From a virus (taxonomy: Duplodnaviria; Heunggongvirae; Uroviricota; Caudoviricetes), in IMG/VR virus record IMGVR_UViG_2554235190_000007: a stretch of DNA of 34,570 bases. One strand, written 5' to 3'. Each line of letters opens with the position of its first letter. Position 1 is the first letter of the stretch. The position numbers and the translations under genes were made by a program. This document shows positions 26,518-34,570 of the stretch, in pieces. The notes below the pieces were generated by a model that saw only the letters and a program-made list of their open reading frames with translations, was not told the DNA's origin and did not search any database.

Positions 26518-27083
26518 GCGTTAGTTTCTCCACAACCAGAAGCAATCGACGCCACGACGCCCGGAGCTGCACACTCGCGGGCGTCATTACTTTCTGAAAT
26601 GCAAAAAATTTTGTAGACAAGTGCTGCATGCTCCTGCAGCTTCGAAATTGAGAGATACAGCTCGTCGTTAATTGCTGTCTTCTCATGCGGTTCCACTACA
26701 CCGTCTTCGATTGCTGAACGAATCTGTTTTGAATAACTGCCGATCTGTTCAATGACTTCCAGCAGACGCTGGTTAATATCGGCGTTGTCCACATCCTCGA
26801 CGTCAGGAAGAGACACAAAGACGCCATTTGCAGACTGCGCCACAGCATCAGCAATGAAGTGAGTGCCACCAGCACGCTGTAAAACCATTGCCCATCCCAG
26901 CGGGAAAATCTGATCGCCATCTGCACGAAGGCGGTTGAATAAAGCGTTTTCTGTTACATCGAGCCAGTCAGCCGCTTCAGCGTAACCACCCGGCAACGCC
27001 GCGATAGTTTTTCTGACAGCTTTCACGTACCACTCAGGCTGTTTTTCTATTTTCCAGTGATGCTTACCCACGATTAGCCTCAT
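26514..27083 (-). CDS. CII-like regulatory protein (CP76 / YdaT-type)
   Basis: 189 aa immediately downstream of cro on the same strand, the position of cII in lambdoid phages; size and sequence are compatible with the large CII-type family, but the assignment is from memory. Confidence 0.45.
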
Positions 27084-27114
27084 CGTTCTGTGGTTAAAAA
27101 TTGAAAGTGTTCTG

Positions 27115-27315
27115 CTAATCTTTCGGATAGATATCCGGTCTTAAGTCAGATTTCGTAATTGCACCTGACGTGCATTGCTCAAGTTTTTTAGCCAGCACAA
27201 AACTGGCTTTTTTATAGCCATTGAAAACCAGCCGTAAGTAGCCAGGTGTTGAGCCAACTTTTCCGGCCAACTCGCCCTGCTGTTCTTTGGTTAAAGAGTC
27301 CCAATACGCTTTCAT
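27115..27315 (-). CDS. cro: Cro-like repressor (YdaS-type HTH)
   Basis: 66 aa, MKAYWDSLTKEQQGELAGKVGSTPGYLRLVFNGYKKASFVLAKKLEQCTSGAITKSDLRPDIYPKD; HTH and C-terminal DLRPDIYP match YdaS/Cro-like proteins. Divergent from cI with GGAGG 10 nt upstream. The track ORF 27115..27618 is a 5'-extended version that overlaps cI. Confidence 0.7.
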   Translation of the reverse strand: MKAYWDSLTKEQQGELAGKVGSTPGYLRLVFNGYKKASFVLAKKLEQCTSGAITKSDLRPDIYPKD

Positions 27316-27320
27316 ACAAT

Positions 27321-27389
27321 ATGTACCTCCGATGTACATATTACATGATTGAAATGAACCTTCAAGATACTTGTACCTTAACGGTACAA
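27321..27389. promoter_or_regulatory. right operator region: two 19-bp palindromic operators with divergent cro and cI promoters
   Basis: ATGTACC-TCCGA-TGTACAT (about 27321..27339) and TTGTACC-TTAAC-GGTACAA (about 27371..27389), sharing TGTACC half-sites. Candidate cro promoter on the minus strand TTGAAG-16-TAATAT; candidate cI promoter on the plus strand TTGTAC-17-TTTAAT placing the start at or next to the cI ATG (leaderless). Confidence 0.5.
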
Positions 27390-27405
27390 GGGTTTTAATT
27401 TCGTT

Positions 27406-28080
27406 ATGAAAACAATCCATGACATCCGGCGGTCTAACGCCAGAAAACTGAGAGATGGTGTTGGCGGGAATTCTTCCTTTGCCACTATGATTGATCGCGA
27501 GCCAACCCAGACCAGCAGGTTTATGGGAGATGGTGCTACTAAAAATATCGGTGACAGCATGGCACGACACATCGAAAAATGTTTCGACCTGCCTGTCGGA
27601 TGGCTCGATCAAGAACACCAGACAACGAACATCACAAAAAAACCTGATGTTTCAATCACTAATAAACAAATCACATTAGTCCCTGTCATATCATGGGTAC
27701 AGGCCGGAGCATGGAAAGAAGTTGGATATTCTGAGGTTGATTTGAGCACAGCAGAAACGTATCCCTGCCCTGTCCCCTGTGGGGAAATGACTTATATCTT
27801 GCGGGTGATAGGTGATTCAATGATTGATGAGTACCGCCCGGGAGACATGATTTTTGTCGATCCTGAAGTACCTGCCTGCCACGGTGACGACGTTATTGCA
27901 TTGATGCACGATACAGGTGAAACCACCTTCAAAAGGTTGATAGAAGATGGGACACAGCGTTATCTCAAAGCGTTAAACCCAAACTGGCCTGAGCCTTACA
28001 TTAAGATCAACGGTAATTGCTCTATAATTGGTACAGTGATTTTCTCAGGAAAACCAAGAAGATACAAAATCAAAGCCTAA
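27406..28080 (+). CDS. cI: CI-type prophage repressor (HTH plus S24 LexA-like peptidase domain)
   Basis: 224 aa; N-terminal HTH, Ala-Gly autocleavage site (WVQAGAWKE), Ser/Lys dyad context (VIGDSM ... TTFKRL); divergent from cro across the operator region; ATG start with no Shine-Dalgarno. Confidence 0.85.
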   Translation: MKTIHDIRRSNARKLRDGVGGNSSFATMIDREPTQTSRFMGDGATKNIGDSMARHIEKCFDLPVGWLDQEHQTTNITKKPDVSITNKQITLVPVISWVQAGAWKEVGYSEVDLSTAETYPCPVPCGEMTYILRVIGDSMIDEYRPGDMIFVDPEVPACHGDDVIALMHDTGETTFKRLIEDGTQRYLKALNPNWPEPYIKINGNCSIIGTVIFSGKPRRYKIKA

Positions 28081-28092
28081 TCAATGTTTATG

Positions 28093-28115
28093 AACCTGCT
28101 TCGGCAGGTTTTTTT
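28093..28115 (+). terminator. rho-independent terminator after cI
   Basis: AACCTGC-(4 nt)-GCAGGTT followed by TTTTT, starting 13 nt after the cI stop. Confidence 0.5.
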
Positions 28116-28119
28116 ATAC

Positions 28120-28152
28120 TTGACAATGTACCTTTGAGATACATAATGTACC
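28120..28152 (+). promoter_or_regulatory. pL-like promoter overlapped by repressor operator half-sites
   Basis: TTGACA - 16 nt - CATAAT on the plus strand, with ATGTACC repeated between -35 and -10 and again over the start region (ATGTACCTTTGAGATACAT resembles the right-operator sites). Confidence 0.45.
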
Positions 28153-28569
28153 CAAGAGAAACAACAAACAGGCAGGACGTCCACGAAGTAGCCGCCTGGG
28201 GCATATGAAGTCCAAGATGATTCGTTAGCAACAAAACGCCCATAGGACGCTTCGCTCTTTAACAATTTGAATATTTTCAGCGTCAATGATCTGTTTAGCT
28301 CCCTACAAGTAAATGTAGCGTAGCACCATGATAAATCCTGCTAGTGTTTAGTTAAAAATCGCGCGAGAGCAAGAACGACGTGAGGGCAGGCAATATTGAT
28401 AGTGTTATTGCTATTAGTTTATCAAAAATATTTAGACGACCCAGATGAATATTTTTAATACATACTCCCCCTAATTTAACAGGAGTAAATGTTGATGAAT
28501 AACGAGACATCTATACTCAACAATTGTATGATATGAACAATTATATAACATAATGTAGGAAAAATAAAA

Positions 28570-29166
28570 ATGGATTGGCATGACCTTATATCAAAGGTAA
28601 TTATCGGACTTGTTACAGGCTCAATCGCAGCTTACTTAACTGCGCGATATGCACTCGGCCGTTATTATAAAGAAAAATGGTGGGACAAAAGAATAGATTT
28701 GTATACGCAATTAGTTGACTGTGTTTATCTTCTAAAAAACACAGCTGACTATTGGTATAAACATGAGTTACATCACGCTTCACAATTCCCAACCTACTTT
28801 AGTTACAAATCAAAAGAAGAAAATGAAATCCTTAGCAAATCTTTCTCTAATGAGCTTGAAAAACTCAGTAGAATAGGTGAGCTATCTTCATTATTCTTAA
28901 CAGAAGAGTGTGGGGATAAAATCCGTTCATTCATTGAAAATGAAGAAAATCTATTTATACAATGGGAGTTTGATAGTATAGAGTTGATAGATGCCCACAA
29001 GTCAAGACTTGATAAATTAAAAGTATTACTAGACGATATTATCTCTGAAGCAAAGAGAGAGCTTAAGGTCAATAAAAAACATAACAGCCTAAAGAATATA
29101 AAGTGGTCCATAACTATGCCAGACCAAAAAAATGATGAGCCAATTAATTATTACGACAATCATTAA
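28570..29166 (+). CDS. hypothetical membrane-anchored protein (198 aa), AT-rich cassette downstream of cI
   Basis: ATG with AGGA upstream; one N-terminal TM helix (ISKVIIGLVTGSIAAYLTARYAL), W/Y-rich juxtamembrane segment (YYKEKWWDKRIDLY...DYWYKHELHH) and K/E-rich helical C-terminal domain; very AT-rich; clean terminator follows. No family recognised. Confidence 0.65.
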   Translation: MDWHDLISKVIIGLVTGSIAAYLTARYALGRYYKEKWWDKRIDLYTQLVDCVYLLKNTADYWYKHELHHASQFPTYFSYKSKEENEILSKSFSNELEKLSRIGELSSLFLTEECGDKIRSFIENEENLFIQWEFDSIELIDAHKSRLDKLKVLLDDIISEAKRELKVNKKHNSLKNIKWSITMPDQKNDEPINYYDNH

Positions 29167-29176
29167 AACACTTTAG

Positions 29177-29198
29177 AACCCGCTGGGCGGGTTTTATT
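29177..29198 (+). terminator. rho-independent terminator after ORF 28570..29166
   Basis: AACCCGC-(3 nt)-GCGGGTT followed by TTTATT, 11 nt after the stop codon. Confidence 0.6.
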
Positions 29199-29588
29199 CA
29201 AATATACTTTGCACATCACAAATAAAACTATAACGTCCTTCTTCTTTTCCTAATATCTTATATCTACTTATTTATAAGCGGCTTACAGATCTTCAACAGA
29301 TAAACCTAATGAAGGCGACAATGTTCTGATGAATAGCCACCTTTTTACTCAACTGAAAGCGCGTTCTGTCCCTTGTCATTAAGTGCCAGTTCGTTAAGTC
29401 CAAAACCTCCGGAACGCGCTTTCAATTGAGTGGGGAAAATAACTGGCGATGGCAGCCGCCCGTTGCACTAAGTGCCTCTGGATGGGGCATTTACTGAAAC
29501 GAAACCAAAACTTTTAATCGCCTTATGGCGAGGGATTCGTGCAACCAAAAATCGTGCGGTGCAGCGCACCAATTAAGGAGAACTAACG

Positions 29589-30125
29589 ATGAGTTTTATC
29601 CAGACTCTTACCGGTAAGAAGTTCAATTATATCAACTCCACCATTGACGATATTTATATCGAGGATATCGCCGGTGCGCTTTCAAATATCTGCCGCTTCG
29701 CGGGACACTTGCCGGATTTTTACAGCGTGGCGCAGCATTCCGTTCTGTGCAGTCAACTTGTGGCGCCAGAGTTCGCCTTTGAAGCGTTAATGCATGATGC
29801 AACAGAAGCGTATTGTCAGGACATCCCCGCGCAACTGAAACGCCTTCTTCCTGACTATAAACGGATGGAAGAAAAAATAGACGCCGTAATCCGTGAGAAA
29901 TACGGGTTACCCCCGGTTATGAGCACGCCCGTGAAATATGCCGATCTCATCATGCTGGCAACCGAACGCCGCGATCTCGGGCTTGATGATGGCTCTTTCT
30001 GGCCTCTACTGGAAGGTATCCCAGCAACAGAGATGTTCAAAGTTATTCCACTGTCGCCAGGCCATGCCTACGGGATGTTTATGGAACGTTTTAACGAGTT
30101 ATCGGAGTTACGCAAATGCGCATGA
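29589..30125 (+). CDS. HD-domain phosphohydrolase (YfdR-like)
   Basis: 178 aa with HD motif (FEALMHDATEAY) and upstream His (FAGHLPDFYSVAQHS); strong Shine-Dalgarno AAGGAG; first gene of the early-left operon. Confidence 0.75.
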   Translation: MSFIQTLTGKKFNYINSTIDDIYIEDIAGALSNICRFAGHLPDFYSVAQHSVLCSQLVAPEFAFEALMHDATEAYCQDIPAQLKRLLPDYKRMEEKIDAVIREKYGLPPVMSTPVKYADLIMLATERRDLGLDDGSFWPLLEGIPATEMFKVIPLSPGHAYGMFMERFNELSELRKCA

Positions 30126-30478
30126 ATGTTTTCGAAATGGAAGGGTTTCTTCGCGGGAAATGTGTACCGCGAGATCTGAAAGTGAATGAAACGGATGCTG
30201 AATACCTGGTGCGTAAATTCGATGCGCTTGAAGCTAAATGTGCGGCACTGGAAAACAAAGTAATACCAGTGTCAACTGAACTGCCACCAGCAAATGAAAG
30301 TGTTTTGTTATTCGATGCTAACGGAGAAGGCTGGCTAATTGGCTGGCGTTCTCTCTGGTACACCTGGGGACAAAAAGAAACCGGAGACTGGCAGTGGACA
30401 TTTCAGGTCGGGGACCTTGAAAACGTCAATATCACTCACTGGGCAGTAATGCCAAAAGCACCGGAGGCTGGAGCATAA
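30116..30478 (+). CDS. DUF551-domain protein
   Basis: 120 aa; Trp-rich C-terminal region (GWLIGWRSLWYTWGQKETGDWQWTF...ITHWAVMP) typical of DUF551; start overlaps the HD gene stop. Confidence 0.65.
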   Translation: MRMNVFEMEGFLRGKCVPRDLKVNETDAEYLVRKFDALEAKCAALENKVIPVSTELPPANESVLLFDANGEGWLIGWRSLWYTWGQKETGDWQWTFQVGDLENVNITHWAVMPKAPEAGA

Positions 30479-30783
30479 TGACCACTTTTACCGACAAAGA
30501 ACTGATTAAAGAAATCAAAGAGCGTATCAGCAGCCTTGACGTGCGAGACGATATTGAGCGCCGTGCTTATGAAATCGCACTCCTATCTCTGGAAGTAGAG
30601 CCAGATGAACGCGAATCCTATGAATTATTTATGGAAAAACGTTTCGGTGGCTTAGTAGATAGTCGGAGAGCAAAAAACGGCGATAACGAATACATGGCAT
30701 GGGATATGACTCTCGGTTGGATCGTCTGGCAACAACGAGCTGGCATTCATTTTTCAACAATATCACAGCAAGAGGTGAAATAA
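30478..30783 (+). CDS. hypothetical protein (101 aa), early-left operon
   Basis: ATG overlapping the upstream stop; no family recognised. Confidence 0.5.
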   Translation: MTTFTDKELIKEIKERISSLDVRDDIERRAYEIALLSLEVEPDERESYELFMEKRFGGLVDSRRAKNGDNEYMAWDMTLGWIVWQQRAGIHFSTISQQEVK

Positions 30784-31133
30784 TGGAACCATACAGCCTC
30801 ACGCTAGATGAGGCCTGTCATTTTCTCAAGATATCCAGACCGACTGCCATTAACTGGATACGCACAGGGCGTCTGCAGGCAACACGCAAAGATCCCACTA
30901 AGAATAAATCTCCTTACCTCACAACACGACAAGCCTGCATTGCGGCGCTTCAGTCTCCGCTGCATACTGTCCAGGTGAGCGCGGGTGATGGCATAACAGA
31001 GGAAAGAAAATGTCACTCTTCCGCAGAGGTGAAATATGGTACGCCAGTTTCACATTGCCGAACGGTAAAAGATTTAAACAGTCTCTTGGAACAAAGGACA
31101 AAAGGCAGGCGACAGAACTCCATGACAAGCTAA
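30783..31133 (+). CDS. xis: excisionase-like HTH protein
   Basis: Starts at the ATG overlapping the upstream stop (TAATG) with GAGGTG upstream; [36 protein letters not shown] is a typical excisionase/AlpA-type HTH. The frame stays open to 31133, overlapping the integrase start by about 120 nt, so the 3' end is uncertain. The track ORF 30699..31133 includes an unlikely 5' extension. Confidence 0.55.
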
Positions 31134-32173
31134 AGGCTGAAGCATGGCGGGTCAGCAAACTTGGTGAAATTCCTGATATAACGTTCGAGGAAGCGTGTGT
31201 CAGGTGGCTTGAAGAGAAAGCACATAAAAAATCACTGGACGATGACAAAAGCCGGATCGGATTCTGGCTTCAACATTTCGCAGGAATGCAACTAAGAGAC
31301 ATTACTGAATCAAAAATTTATTCAGCAATGCAGAAAATGACGAACCGGCGTCATGAGGAAAACTGGAAACTCAGGGCAGAAGCATGCAGAAAAAAAGGGA
31401 AACCTGTTCCAGAATACACGCCAAAACCAGCGTCCGTTGCAACGAAGGCTACGCATCTTTCATTTATAAAGGCCCTGCTAAGAGCCGCAGAGCGTGAATG
31501 GAAAATGCTGGATAAGGCACCAATTATTAAAGTGCCTCAACCAAAGAATAAACGGATCCGCTGGCTGGAGCCTCATGAAGCACAAAGGCTGATTGATGAA
31601 TGTCCGGAGCCATTAAAGTCTGTTGTTGAATTTGCACTTGCAACAGGCTTAAGACGCTCGAACATCATCAACCTTGAATGACAACAAATAGACATGCAGC
31701 GCCGGGTGGCATGGATAAACCCGGAAGAGAGTAAATCAAACCGCGCAATTGGCGTTGCGCTGAATGATACTGCATGTCGCGTATTGAAAAAACAAATCGG
31801 GAATCATCACCGTTGGGTATTTGTGTATAAGGAAAGCTGTACCAAACCAGACGGAACGAAAGCGCCAACAGTCAGGAAGATGCGGTATGACGCAAACACA
31901 GCCTGGAAAGCGGCGCTGAGACGAGCAGGTATTGATGATTTCAGATTTCACGACTTGAGACACACCTGGGCAAGTTGGCTGGTTCAAGCCGGAGTCCCGT
32001 TATCAGTGTTACAGGAAATGGGAGGCTGGGAGTCTATCGAAATGGTTCGTCGATATGCTCACCTCGCACCTAATCACCTTACCGAACACGCACGGCAAAT
32101 AGACTCGATTCTGAACCCATCGGTCCCAAATTTGTCCCAGTCAAGAAATAAGGAAGGTACTAATGATGTGTAA
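31010..32173 (+). pseudogene. int: tyrosine integrase interrupted by one in-frame stop codon (read as TGA at 31679..31681)
   Basis: Track ORFs 31010..31681 and 31694..32173 are in the same frame. The first carries the N-terminal arm-binding domain and the first catalytic Arg ([13 protein letters not shown]); the second carries the rest of the catalytic domain ([18 protein letters not shown]). The stop falls where family members usually have Trp (LEWQQID), so a single TGG to TGA change is the simplest explanation. Confidence 0.7.
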
Positions 32174-32187
32174 CTTATTGATTTAAA

Positions 32188-32236
32188 TGGTGCCGATAAT
32201 AGGAGTCGAACCTACGACCTTCGCATTACGAATGCG
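32188..32236 (-). other. att core: 3' 49 nt of tRNA-Thr(CGU) (thrW-like), not a complete tRNA
   Basis: Plus strand TGGTGCCGATAATAGGAGTCGAACCTACGACCTTCGCATTACGAATGCG is the reverse complement of a tRNA 3' portion (anticodon loop TTCGTAA with anticodon CGT, T-arm GGTTCGACTCC, acceptor stem, CCA). The upstream 5' half of a tRNA is absent. Lies 15 nt after the integrase stop. Confidence 0.65.
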
Positions 32237-32324
32237 TAAATTGGTCCTGTAAAATCAATACCTATCGAATTTAAATAGATTTTTTGCCACAATATTGCCA
32301 CAGTTCGTTAGGAATCAGACAGAA

Positions 32325-33398
32325 ATGGCGACTATACGCAAACGTGGTAATTACCAATGGGAAGCTCAAATCCGTAAACGTGGTTTTCCCTCTCAAACCA
32401 AAACCTTTAACACCAAAGTAGAAGCAGATGCTTGGGCCAAAATGATCGAGTCAGAAATGGCGAGAGGAGTTTGGCTTAGCCGCAGCGAAGCGGAATCTAC
32501 GACATTGTATGAAGCCCTAACGCGCTATGAAAAAGAGATTGTTCCCGACAAAAAAGGAGCAGTGCAAGACCGATCATTGGTGCGGATACTAAAAGGCACT
32601 CAGCTGGCAAAAAACTATATGGCCAGCATCAGGAGTGCCGATGTCGCCAAGCTAAGAGATGAATGGTTGAAAATTTATGCTCCTGCAACCGTTTTAAGGC
32701 GTTTGGCCTTACTTTCTCATGTATTCAATGTTTCGCGGAAAGAATGGGGCATGGAGAGCCTGCTGAACCCCGTAGAGGCCATTCGCAAACCCCAACCCAA
32801 GAACTCAAGGACCAGACGCCTGGAAGCGCTGCCTTTAGTTTCTGAGCAAACCGGTGTTACGTCAGGAAAGGAATTAGCCAACGAGATCGAACATATCATT
32901 GCCGCAACACATTCATTAGTATTGCCAGCAATCATTCTTCTGGCGTTAGAGACAGCCATGCGCCGTAGCGAAATTGCAGAACTTCGATGGCGCTTTATCG
33001 ATCTTGATAGGCGAGTTGCACACCTGCCGGATACTAAGAATGGTAATGCTCGCGATGTCCCCTTATCCACAAAGGCTGTTATGGTACTATCCAATCTAAA
33101 GGAGCGTTCTAAACAAGCTGATGACAAGGTTTTTGGAATGCGTGCCGATGCGATCACCCGCGCTTTTGATCGAGCTGTAAAGCGCGCCAGAGAAAGATAT
33201 GAACAAGCTAAACCTCAATGTGATGACACCTTCCTCAAAGATTTAAGATTTCACGATCTCCGGCATGAAGCGACCTCTCGCTTGGCTGAGATTTTCCCCA
33301 TGCACGAGCTGACAAAAATCACGGGGCATAAAGACCCGAGAATGCTAATGCGGTATTATCATCCAAAAGCTGAGGATTTAGCGTTAAAGTTGAAATAA
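32325..33398 (+). CDS. tyrosine integrase of a second, adjacent integrative element
   Basis: Arm-type N-terminus (MATIRKRGNYQWEAQIRKRGFPSQTKTFNTKVEADAWAKMIE) and catalytic motifs (RRSEIAELRW, FHDLRHEATS, LMRYYHP). Track ORF starts at TTG 32295; the ATG at about 32325 is the more likely start. Begins about 90 nt after the att fragment and points away from it. Confidence 0.8.
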   Translation: MATIRKRGNYQWEAQIRKRGFPSQTKTFNTKVEADAWAKMIESEMARGVWLSRSEAESTTLYEALTRYEKEIVPDKKGAVQDRSLVRILKGTQLAKNYMASIRSADVAKLRDEWLKIYAPATVLRRLALLSHVFNVSRKEWGMESLLNPVEAIRKPQPKNSRTRRLEALPLVSEQTGVTSGKELANEIEHIIAATHSLVLPAIILLALETAMRRSEIAELRWRFIDLDRRVAHLPDTKNGNARDVPLSTKAVMVLSNLKERSKQADDKVFGMRADAITRAFDRAVKRARERYEQAKPQCDDTFLKDLRFHDLRHEATSRLAEIFPMHELTKITGHKDPRMLMRYYHPKAEDLALKLK

Positions 33399-33408
33399 AG
33401 GATATCTT

Positions 33409-34356
33409 ATGCGTTACATTAGAAAACACATTGCAAATTTTGATTTCAATATTGTATCCATTACATATTTGCTGATTGCTTGCATTGTAATCATGAAGTT
33501 CCCATTATTACTTCAAGATAAAACCTTCTTGGTTTGTGGGTTATTCCTCTCGGTAGCATTCATTTTTTGTGCCTATAACAACAAAAAAACAATCGTCAAT
33601 AAAATGATTGAGCACAGCATCATTAAATGGATTGGAACTGTATTGATTTTTTCAAGTTGTATGTGGTATGCAAAACATAAAATTAATTTTGATTACGATA
33701 TTCAACCGGAATACTTAATATACTCATCTTATGGTTATGCTTTCGCAATGGCCATTCCTCTATCTCTATCCATTTATGGCCTTAGCATTTTCATATACTT
33801 ATACCTTGGAAGAATTACTGCTTATCAATGCTTTTACGCGGCAATTTTGACCATCCCTTTTTCTGCAATGCTAAGAGAGACGATTGAAAAAAACCAAGAG
33901 GTTGATTTCAAAGTTATTATGTTGTTAGTTTTCGGGTTAGCTTTCGGTATCATAACCATGTTCAAAGCAATGCCAAAAACAAATAAAGAATCAACTTCAC
34001 CCAATAAAAAGAATCTATTATACATTGCAAAAACAATGGCACAAGATATTAATAGAGCAAAACTAATTTTAATGATATGGTTTAAAAAAATACTTATATG
34101 TTCGAATAGCTACTTAAGAGTTGCAGATCTATTATCGACAGCAATTGCATTATTATTCATTGGTGTTTTTTCAATAAAGATAATACCAGAGTATCAGAAG
34201 TCTTTTCTTTTACTTGATGCTTTTTCCAAGACAGATTGCAATACAAAAAAAGATTCATTTTCATACATCAGGAAATCGAAAAACGAATGCTACAGAATTA
34301 ATTCTAAAGGAATAGAAATTATCGAAATGATATCATTTACCTCATCAGCTGACTAA
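33409..34356 (+). CDS. hypothetical polytopic inner-membrane protein (315 aa, about 7-8 TM helices)
   Basis: ATG 10 nt after the integrase stop with AAGGA upstream; extremely AT-rich; multiple hydrophobic segments (e.g. IVSITYLLIACIVIM, FLVCGLFLSVAFIFCAY, YAFAMAIPLSLSIYGLSIFIYLYLG, VIMLLVFGLAFGIITMF, LLSTAIALLFIGVFSIKII); no family recognised. Confidence 0.6.
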   Translation: MRYIRKHIANFDFNIVSITYLLIACIVIMKFPLLLQDKTFLVCGLFLSVAFIFCAYNNKKTIVNKMIEHSIIKWIGTVLIFSSCMWYAKHKINFDYDIQPEYLIYSSYGYAFAMAIPLSLSIYGLSIFIYLYLGRITAYQCFYAAILTIPFSAMLRETIEKNQEVDFKVIMLLVFGLAFGIITMFKAMPKTNKESTSPNKKNLLYIAKTMAQDINRAKLILMIWFKKILICSNSYLRVADLLSTAIALLFIGVFSIKIIPEYQKSFLLLDAFSKTDCNTKKDSFSYIRKSKNECYRINSKGIEIIEMISFTSSAD

Positions 34357-34369
34357 AACATAGGTAGTA

Positions 34370-34570
34370 ATGAAAATGGATGAGACCACAAAGAGAAAAA
34401 GGATTGAGGCATTTAGGAAAGCAGAGGCTAGCTTATATTTATCAGGTAAAGATCCTCGCGGATCAGAATTTTACCAGAAAATAAAGGATGAAATTATAAA
34501 AGGTAAGCTAACTTATGAAGAGGCAAAAGCAGAGATTTTAAATCACCATATAGAGAAATCGAAAAAATAA
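34370..34570 (+). CDS. hypothetical small helical protein (66 aa), weak resemblance to VbhA/YhfG-type Fic antitoxins
   Basis: Complete ORF ending at the window edge, MKMDETTKRKRIEAFRKAEASLYLSGKDPRGSEFYQKIKDEIIKGKLTYEEAKAEILNHH. The AEASLYLSG segment resembles the SxxxEG inhibitory motif of class I Fic antitoxins, but with Ser in place of the Glu. Confidence 0.35.
   Translation: MKMDETTKRKRIEAFRKAEASLYLSGKDPRGSEFYQKIKDEIIKGKLTYEEAKAEILNHHIEKSKK

Follow-up and report, generated by a model that had tools for sequence, protein, structure and literature searches.

A 3' fragment of thrW lies between two integrase genes

In the 34,570-nt stretch of viral DNA analysed here (the window; IMG/VR record IMGVR_UViG_2554235190_000007), two integrase genes flank a short piece of tRNA sequence. 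This raises the question of whether the piece is a tRNA gene or an attachment site and, if it is an attachment site, whether it marks the border between two integrative elements inserted at the same tRNA gene. The original prediction, made from the letters of the window, was that the piece is the reverse complement of the 3' part of a tRNA-Thr(CGU) gene without its 5' half, and that it is a copy of an att core rather than a gene. Both parts of this proposal held when the fragment was compared with annotated genomes. The plus-strand sequence of positions 32188-32236 is TGGTGCCGATAATAGGAGTCGAACCTACGACCTTCGCATTACGAATGCG, and its reverse complement is an exact copy of nucleotides 28-76 of Escherichia coli thrW, tRNA-Thr(CGU). 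It likewise matches, at 49 of 49 positions, the 3' ends of intact tRNA-Thr(cgt) genes in E. coli LR-06 (locus L004, 6092-6167, minus strand) and E. coli WAT (locus L002, 30611-30686), both of which are called by ARAGORN and adjoin proA. The fragment contains the anticodon stem from its second base, the CGU anticodon loop, the variable loop, the T arm, the 3' strand of the acceptor stem and the terminal ACCA, while the alignment with thrW stops exactly at nucleotide 28 and the 5' half is missing. Chance matches to the fragment were absent from 100 shuffles with 3 mismatches permitted. ARAGORN called no tRNA over the whole window, the Rfam tRNA model scored 22.6 bits at the fragment, which is below its gathering score of 29, and a 112-nt stretch that includes the fragment has no cloverleaf in its predicted fold. 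The feature derives from the 3' part of a tRNA and does not constitute a tRNA gene; it is a recombination scar, a copy of the 3' segment of thrW that serves tyrosine integrases as a crossover site.

Nested in the 49-nt copy is the 46-bp att core of SfV/P22-type phages (32188-32233, minus strand; ATTCGTAATGCG...GGCACCA). This core, ATTCGTAATGCGAAGGTCGTAGGTTCGACTCCTATTATCGGCACCA, is present without mismatch in the window and in the attP of SfV and SfIV, and is the published 46-base att core of SfI, SfII, SfV, SfX and P22 (PMC3636060) and also of SfIV (PMC3851460). Neither a second copy of the core, at up to 3 mismatches, nor an intact thrW was found anywhere in the window, because the window ends inside both elements: it begins in the tail-fibre genes of the prophage and stops 2.3 kb into the second element.

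The left flank is the integrase end of an SfV-like prophage

Positions 1-32187 hold the right-hand 32 kb of a prophage resembling SfV, SfIV and e14, whose left end lies beyond the window. Its modules for a Mu-like tail, an HK97-type head, lysis, Q, replication, cI/cro and xis-int can all be recognised. The window is colinear with a prophage of LR-06 at 92-99% identity, and the segment from cI to int (27000-32240) is 97% identical in DNA to Shigella phages SfIV and SfV. The gene for the SfV-type tyrosine integrase (31010-32173, plus strand; Pfam PF00589) ends just left of the fragment, as had been proposed, with its frame stopping at 32173 and 14 nt in between. This spacer (32174-32187) is identical to SfV attP and forms part of the int-side (P') arm of the phage. 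An open reading frame at 30699-31133 (plus strand) that overlaps the start of int is, from synteny, the probable excisionase gene, as it has the position and overlap of xis in SfV and SfIV; in LR-06 it is annotated as an HTH protein. In the SfV and SfIV genomes the 46-bp core sits between int and gtrA, and the left flank of the junction, from the int stop codon through the core, is identical to the int-side arm of their attP. The window thus shows the int-side attP arm, the adjacent convergent int and the xis-like reading frame of an SfV-type att site, and the right boundary of the prophage is at 32187/32188.

The integrase gene of this prophage is a pseudogene in the window, a point absent from the original prediction. 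With its stop codon read through, the product is 98% identical in amino acid sequence to the 387-aa Int of SfV; unlike the SfV gene, however, the frame carries an in-frame TGA at 31679-31681 (W224 to stop), where relatives such as LR-06 have TGG. The premature stop precedes the catalytic HxxR and Tyr residues, leaving the window with no intact integrase for excision of the prophage. In E7476, int bears no pseudogene flag and differs at about 1 position from the 1197-nt query. The TGA could be a genuine mutation that inactivates the gene, or it could reflect an error in sequencing. Provided that the base call is correct, truncation of Int before its catalytic residues means that the prophage is probably unable to excise by itself and would need a related Int in trans.

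The gtrABC cargo that lies beside attP in SfV and SfIV is not conserved in the closest genome, LR-06. There, just beyond the point corresponding to the left end of the window (locus L003, 7377-12762), it is replaced by genes for a 476-aa hypothetical protein, a DUF2254 protein and a BCCT-family transporter.

The right flank is the distal end of a second integrative element

On the other side of the fragment, an arm of 88 nt (32237-32324) leads to the ATG, at 32325, of a second integrase gene on the plus strand (int2; 32325-33398), in keeping with the distance of about 90 nt and the orientation away from the core that had been described. Int2 is a tyrosine recombinase of 357 aa (Pfam PF00589, E 8.8e-27; RefSeq WP_000201381.1, 'site-specific integrase'). 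The earlier description of the two integrases as unrelated was overstated: both belong to PF00589 and they are 30% identical over 244 aligned positions in the catalytic domain (E 5e-18); they are distant relatives of clearly different lineages. Downstream of int2 lie the first cargo genes of this element (element 2, hereafter E2), one for a 315-aa hypothetical protein (33409-34356, plus strand) without a match in Pfam or NCBIfam, and one for a VbhA-family antitoxin (34370-34570, plus strand) that ends at the edge of the window. They rest on the list of open reading frames of the window and on the RefSeq annotation of this stretch in LR-06 and WAT. A Fic/VbhT-type toxin is not annotated near the antitoxin gene in LR-06 or WAT. 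Scanning 32100-32400 for promoter and terminator consensus sequences returned nothing.

The 88-nt arm, int2 and the next two genes are 99.9-100% identical in many phage-free E. coli genomes. In the E2-only strain WAT, in which the arm is identical, E2 forms a 15.5-kb island between intact thrW and the same 49-bp repeat, and the chromosomal yagP' remnant and paoD come straight after the repeat. The right flank of the window junction therefore corresponds to the distal end (attR) of E2 as found where this element stands alone. The WAT island encodes Int2, the hypothetical protein, the VbhA-family antitoxin, remnants of TrbL, TrbJ and TraJ, HigA, Hachiman HamA with its helicase, and an FRG-domain protein. 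E2 is a degraded ICE/IME-like island that encodes its own integrase and Hachiman defence; a fec operon or Tn10 is also present in some strains. It has no annotated relaxase or coupling-protein gene and contains IS insertions, and thus looks old and immobile by itself.

A direct pair, TTGCCACA-N3-TTGCCACA, is located at 32284-32302, on the int2 side and 48 nt away from the core. At the opposite end of E2 a pair with the same orientation lies 81 nt from thrW, and this holds for every E2 locus examined that includes that end. Pairs were located at L004 5992-6010 in LR-06, and at L002 15115-15133 and 30511-30529 in WAT. These pairs are candidate arm-type binding sites for Int2.

Closely related genomes contain the complete array

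The complete genome closest to the window is that of E. coli LR-06, which is 99.6% identical to positions 31000-34570 and 99.0% identical over an 801-bp junction query. Its order, in the orientation of the window, is paoABCD, yagP', a 46-bp core, a 43-kb prophage ending in int, a 49-bp core, E2, thrW, proA and proB, and its E2 carries an inserted IS1-flanked fec operon. Three direct copies of the core are present in LR-06: one in the intact thrW beside proA, the 49-bp copy at the junction, and a 46-bp copy (L003, 6982-7027) that bounds the prophage on its far side and adjoins yagP'/paoD. The far copy, which lies beyond the window, is flanked by the other (gtr-side, P) arm of the SfV/SfIV attP. 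The intact tRNA-Thr gene and the further core copies expected under the original prediction are absent from the window, and both are found in LR-06. This layout is found again in Z0117EC0040, whose E2 is diverged and carries Tn10, and in both genomes an intact tRNA gene is accompanied by at least two more direct copies of the core. The array is thus seen in relatives that are 98-99.6% identical, the window itself holding one core copy and no thrW. Placed in this array, the window copy (32188-32236, minus strand; 49/49 to thrW) is both the tRNA-distal end, or attR, of E2 and the int-proximal end, or attL, of the prophage, which is the shared naming that had been proposed for it.

A motif resembling AAAATCA(N2-4)AGTTAC occurs past the CCA end of the tRNA sequence in the native chromosome, in the int-side arm of the phage and at the thrW-proximal end of E2 (window 32170-32187; L003 6960-6981; L004 6065-6091). 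Its presence in three contexts indicates that the similarity between attP and attB reaches past the tRNA. In LR-06 the prophage is bounded by a perfect direct repeat of 56 bp instead of 46.

Each element occurs alone at thrW and the two stack in either order

Chimeric queries were searched against 5426 complete E. coli genomes, and places with at least 80% query coverage were counted. This revealed a precise empty site, proA-thrW-yagP'-paoD, in 948 genomes (e.g. ATCC 8739, 99.9%), an SfV-type int directly beside intact thrW in about 1199 genomes (e.g. E7476), and the attR of E2 joined straight onto yagP' in the flanking chromosome, the copy there lacking a prophage, in 33 genomes. The int1-core-int2 junction as it stands in the window was present in 15 genomes. 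The probable reverse order, thrW-phage-core-E2, was seen in at least 3 genomes, at 73% coverage owing to different phage cargo, and was confirmed by sequence in ECCHD184. Outside this set, the exact 98-nt junction occurs on one 20-kb IMG/VR contig, which is 98.2% identical to the window over the compared stretch, and the exact junction patterns had no match in the GTDB species-representative genomes.

Comparison with genomes lacking one or both elements, which had been put forward as a check, thus found each element solo at thrW as well as the site with neither. As the elements occur solo with boundaries exactly at the core and stack in either order, they behave as two independent elements. 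The tandem insertion at one tRNA site that had been predicted is upheld by the three-copy array of LR-06, by the solo elements and by the 948 empty sites. The window junction is a classical tandem array at a tRNA hotspot, and we consider it highly probable that two independent integrative elements were stacked at proA-thrW with their junction marked by a thrW scar.

In ECCHD184 (locus L010, 20593-20638), an E2 end of the thrW-proximal type, the 46-bp core and an SfV-like P arm lead into the body of the prophage. Elsewhere this E2 has been rearranged and contains IS1 together with genes for sugar utilisation.

The junction belongs to the SfV/P22 family of thrW attachment sites

By core, arm and Int identity the junction belongs to the SfV/P22 family of thrW att sites, and it fails only in the integrity of its Int. 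The 46-bp core is identical to that of the SfV, SfIV, SfI, SfII and P22 sites; the int-side arm is identical to, and the int-xis-attP layout like, those of SfV and SfIV, with 98% identity to SfV Int and 97% DNA identity in the early region. Unlike SfV-type sites, the core in the window joins the end of another island and not the 5' half of thrW. SfI and SfX have been made to form tandem lysogens at thrW experimentally (Sun et al. 2011, PMC3306764), and there likewise att copies at proA-thrW are shared by two integrase-bearing elements, which an att site separates. The two elements of that experiment are both phages and have one 46-bp core in common, whereas the phage is paired here with an island that is not a phage and that has its own type of integrase and a 49-bp repeat; moreover, the incoming phage was at the attL (intact tRNA) side in the SfI/SfX tandem, while the phage in the present array is on the tRNA-distal side.

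The cryptic prophage CP4-6 of E. coli K-12, which extends from thrW to yagP, shares with E2 its slot, its chromosomal flank and a 49-bp repeat that starts from thrW nucleotide 28, and its intF, like int2, lies at the tRNA-distal end and is transcribed away from attR. IntF (466 aa) and Int2 (357 aa) are, however, only 27% identical over 173 aligned positions, and the arms and cargo of CP4-6 are unrelated to those of E2. That E2 might be CP4-6 itself was rejected on this divergence of the integrases and because nothing beyond the 49-bp core and the flanking chromosome can be aligned between the arms. The same 49-bp extent in both elements, despite integrases that are 27% identical, suggests that in both of them the anticodon stem constrains how far identity extends on the 5' side. 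In K-12 MG1655 (locus L008), the annotated boundary of CP4-6 (4399) is at thrW nucleotide 28, and attR is at 38706-38755.

thrW is among the most often targeted tDNAs of E. coli (PMC7545054). Since it is a long-known hotspot and its tandem occupancy has been shown experimentally, the junction touches no open question; the feature is real but is an ordinary instance of a well-described phenomenon. Mildly new are only the pairing of a phage with an ICE-remnant island, the nonsense codon and a recurrent 'tRNA-Ser' artefact of PGAP. The main use of the analysis is in annotation: it places the right edge of the prophage at 32187/32188, delimits a separate island from 32237 that carries defence and iron-uptake genes, marks the prophage integrase as a pseudogene in the strain of the window, and flags the RefSeq 'tRNA-Ser' as a mis-annotation over the att scar.

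Order of integration and alternative explanations

In the mechanism that we propose, E2 occupies thrW and has duplicated nucleotides 28-76 at the distal end, where its integrase gene lies. A temperate phage resembling SfV, with the canonical 46-bp thrW core in its attP beside int-xis, recombined with one of the thrW core copies. The product has the E2 flank on the tRNA-5' side of the junction and the int (P') arm of the phage on the tRNA-3' side, and the prophage ends on its far side in another 46-bp copy that is joined to the other attP arm. As the flank of the far copy in LR-06 is the gtr-side attP arm, the junction is what Int would be expected to yield by recombining an SfV-type attP with a copy of the thrW core. 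We lean somewhat towards E2 having arrived first and the phage having entered its attR copy. This order is favoured by the degraded state of E2, with its IS insertions and no annotated relaxase or coupling-protein gene, and by the CGCA/TGCG anticodon stem retained in the 49-bp copy, which makes it resemble a complete attB core. Had the phage instead been there already when E2 inserted into the intact thrW of the lysogen, the final sequence would be identical, and the order cannot be deduced from the junctions because both routes give one product and both physical orders occur in the population. In the published experiment, SfI entered the intact-tRNA (attL) side of an SfX lysogen in 24/24 isolates (PMC3306764). 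This choice of the intact-tRNA attL over the fragment weakens the part of our proposal in which the phage enters the fragment; the alternative copy in that experiment was a 46-bp phage attR without the 5' stem strand (PMC3306764).

The truncation of the prophage Int and the 46-bp crossover segment common to all three core copies point to a further possibility, namely that Int2, a predicted recombinase, or a co-resident SfV-type Int might recombine the copy in thrW with that at the far prophage end and so excise E2 and the prophage together as a composite circle. In a related version, islands that keep thrW nucleotides 28-30 might act as a second attB. We consider this reading unlikely. If it were true, an attR keeping nucleotides 28-30, and so the whole anticodon stem, would divert P22/SfV-type phages from the tRNA gene, and phage-made 46-bp attR copies would lack such attB competence.

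Stacking of two independent elements also accounts better for the data than does a single composite element with two integrases, in which the internal tRNA fragment would be a fossil carried along. The int1-core-int2 junction is found in 15 complete genomes, and at least some arrays may have been inherited or moved as a block; however, each half is found at thrW without the other and is delimited precisely by the core, the opposite order of the elements is also seen, and the flanks are SfV attP arms, which makes a composite origin very unlikely. An assembly artefact, in which contigs ending in thrW core copies were misjoined and the prophage and E2 are not adjacent, is scarcely credible: three exact copies of a 46-49 bp repeat in a span of about 70 kb could lead assemblers of short reads astray, but the same architecture appears in 15 'complete genome' assemblies from unrelated studies, the exact 98-nt junction is on an IMG/VR contig, and the 49-bp repeat is shorter than typical read lengths.

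Finally, we give almost no weight to a functional or degenerate tRNA gene, which RefSeq/PGAP annotates as a 112-nt 'tRNA-Ser' at the equivalent of 32188-32299 (minus strand) in nearly every E2-bearing genome examined: its T arm, the 3' strand of its acceptor stem and its CCA do come from a tRNA, but we reject it as a real gene on the ARAGORN and Rfam results given above and on folding, as the 112 nt form no cloverleaf and do not exceed shuffled sequences in stability (z -1.09), the 5' acceptor strand pairs by eye at 5/7 positions, the D arm is absent, and the 5' part is E2 arm DNA with the int2 upstream region. Our guess is that the anticodon hairpin of thrW was mistaken for a long variable arm. 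The same annotation stands at L001 21189-21300, L002 15019-15130 and L009 20339-20450.
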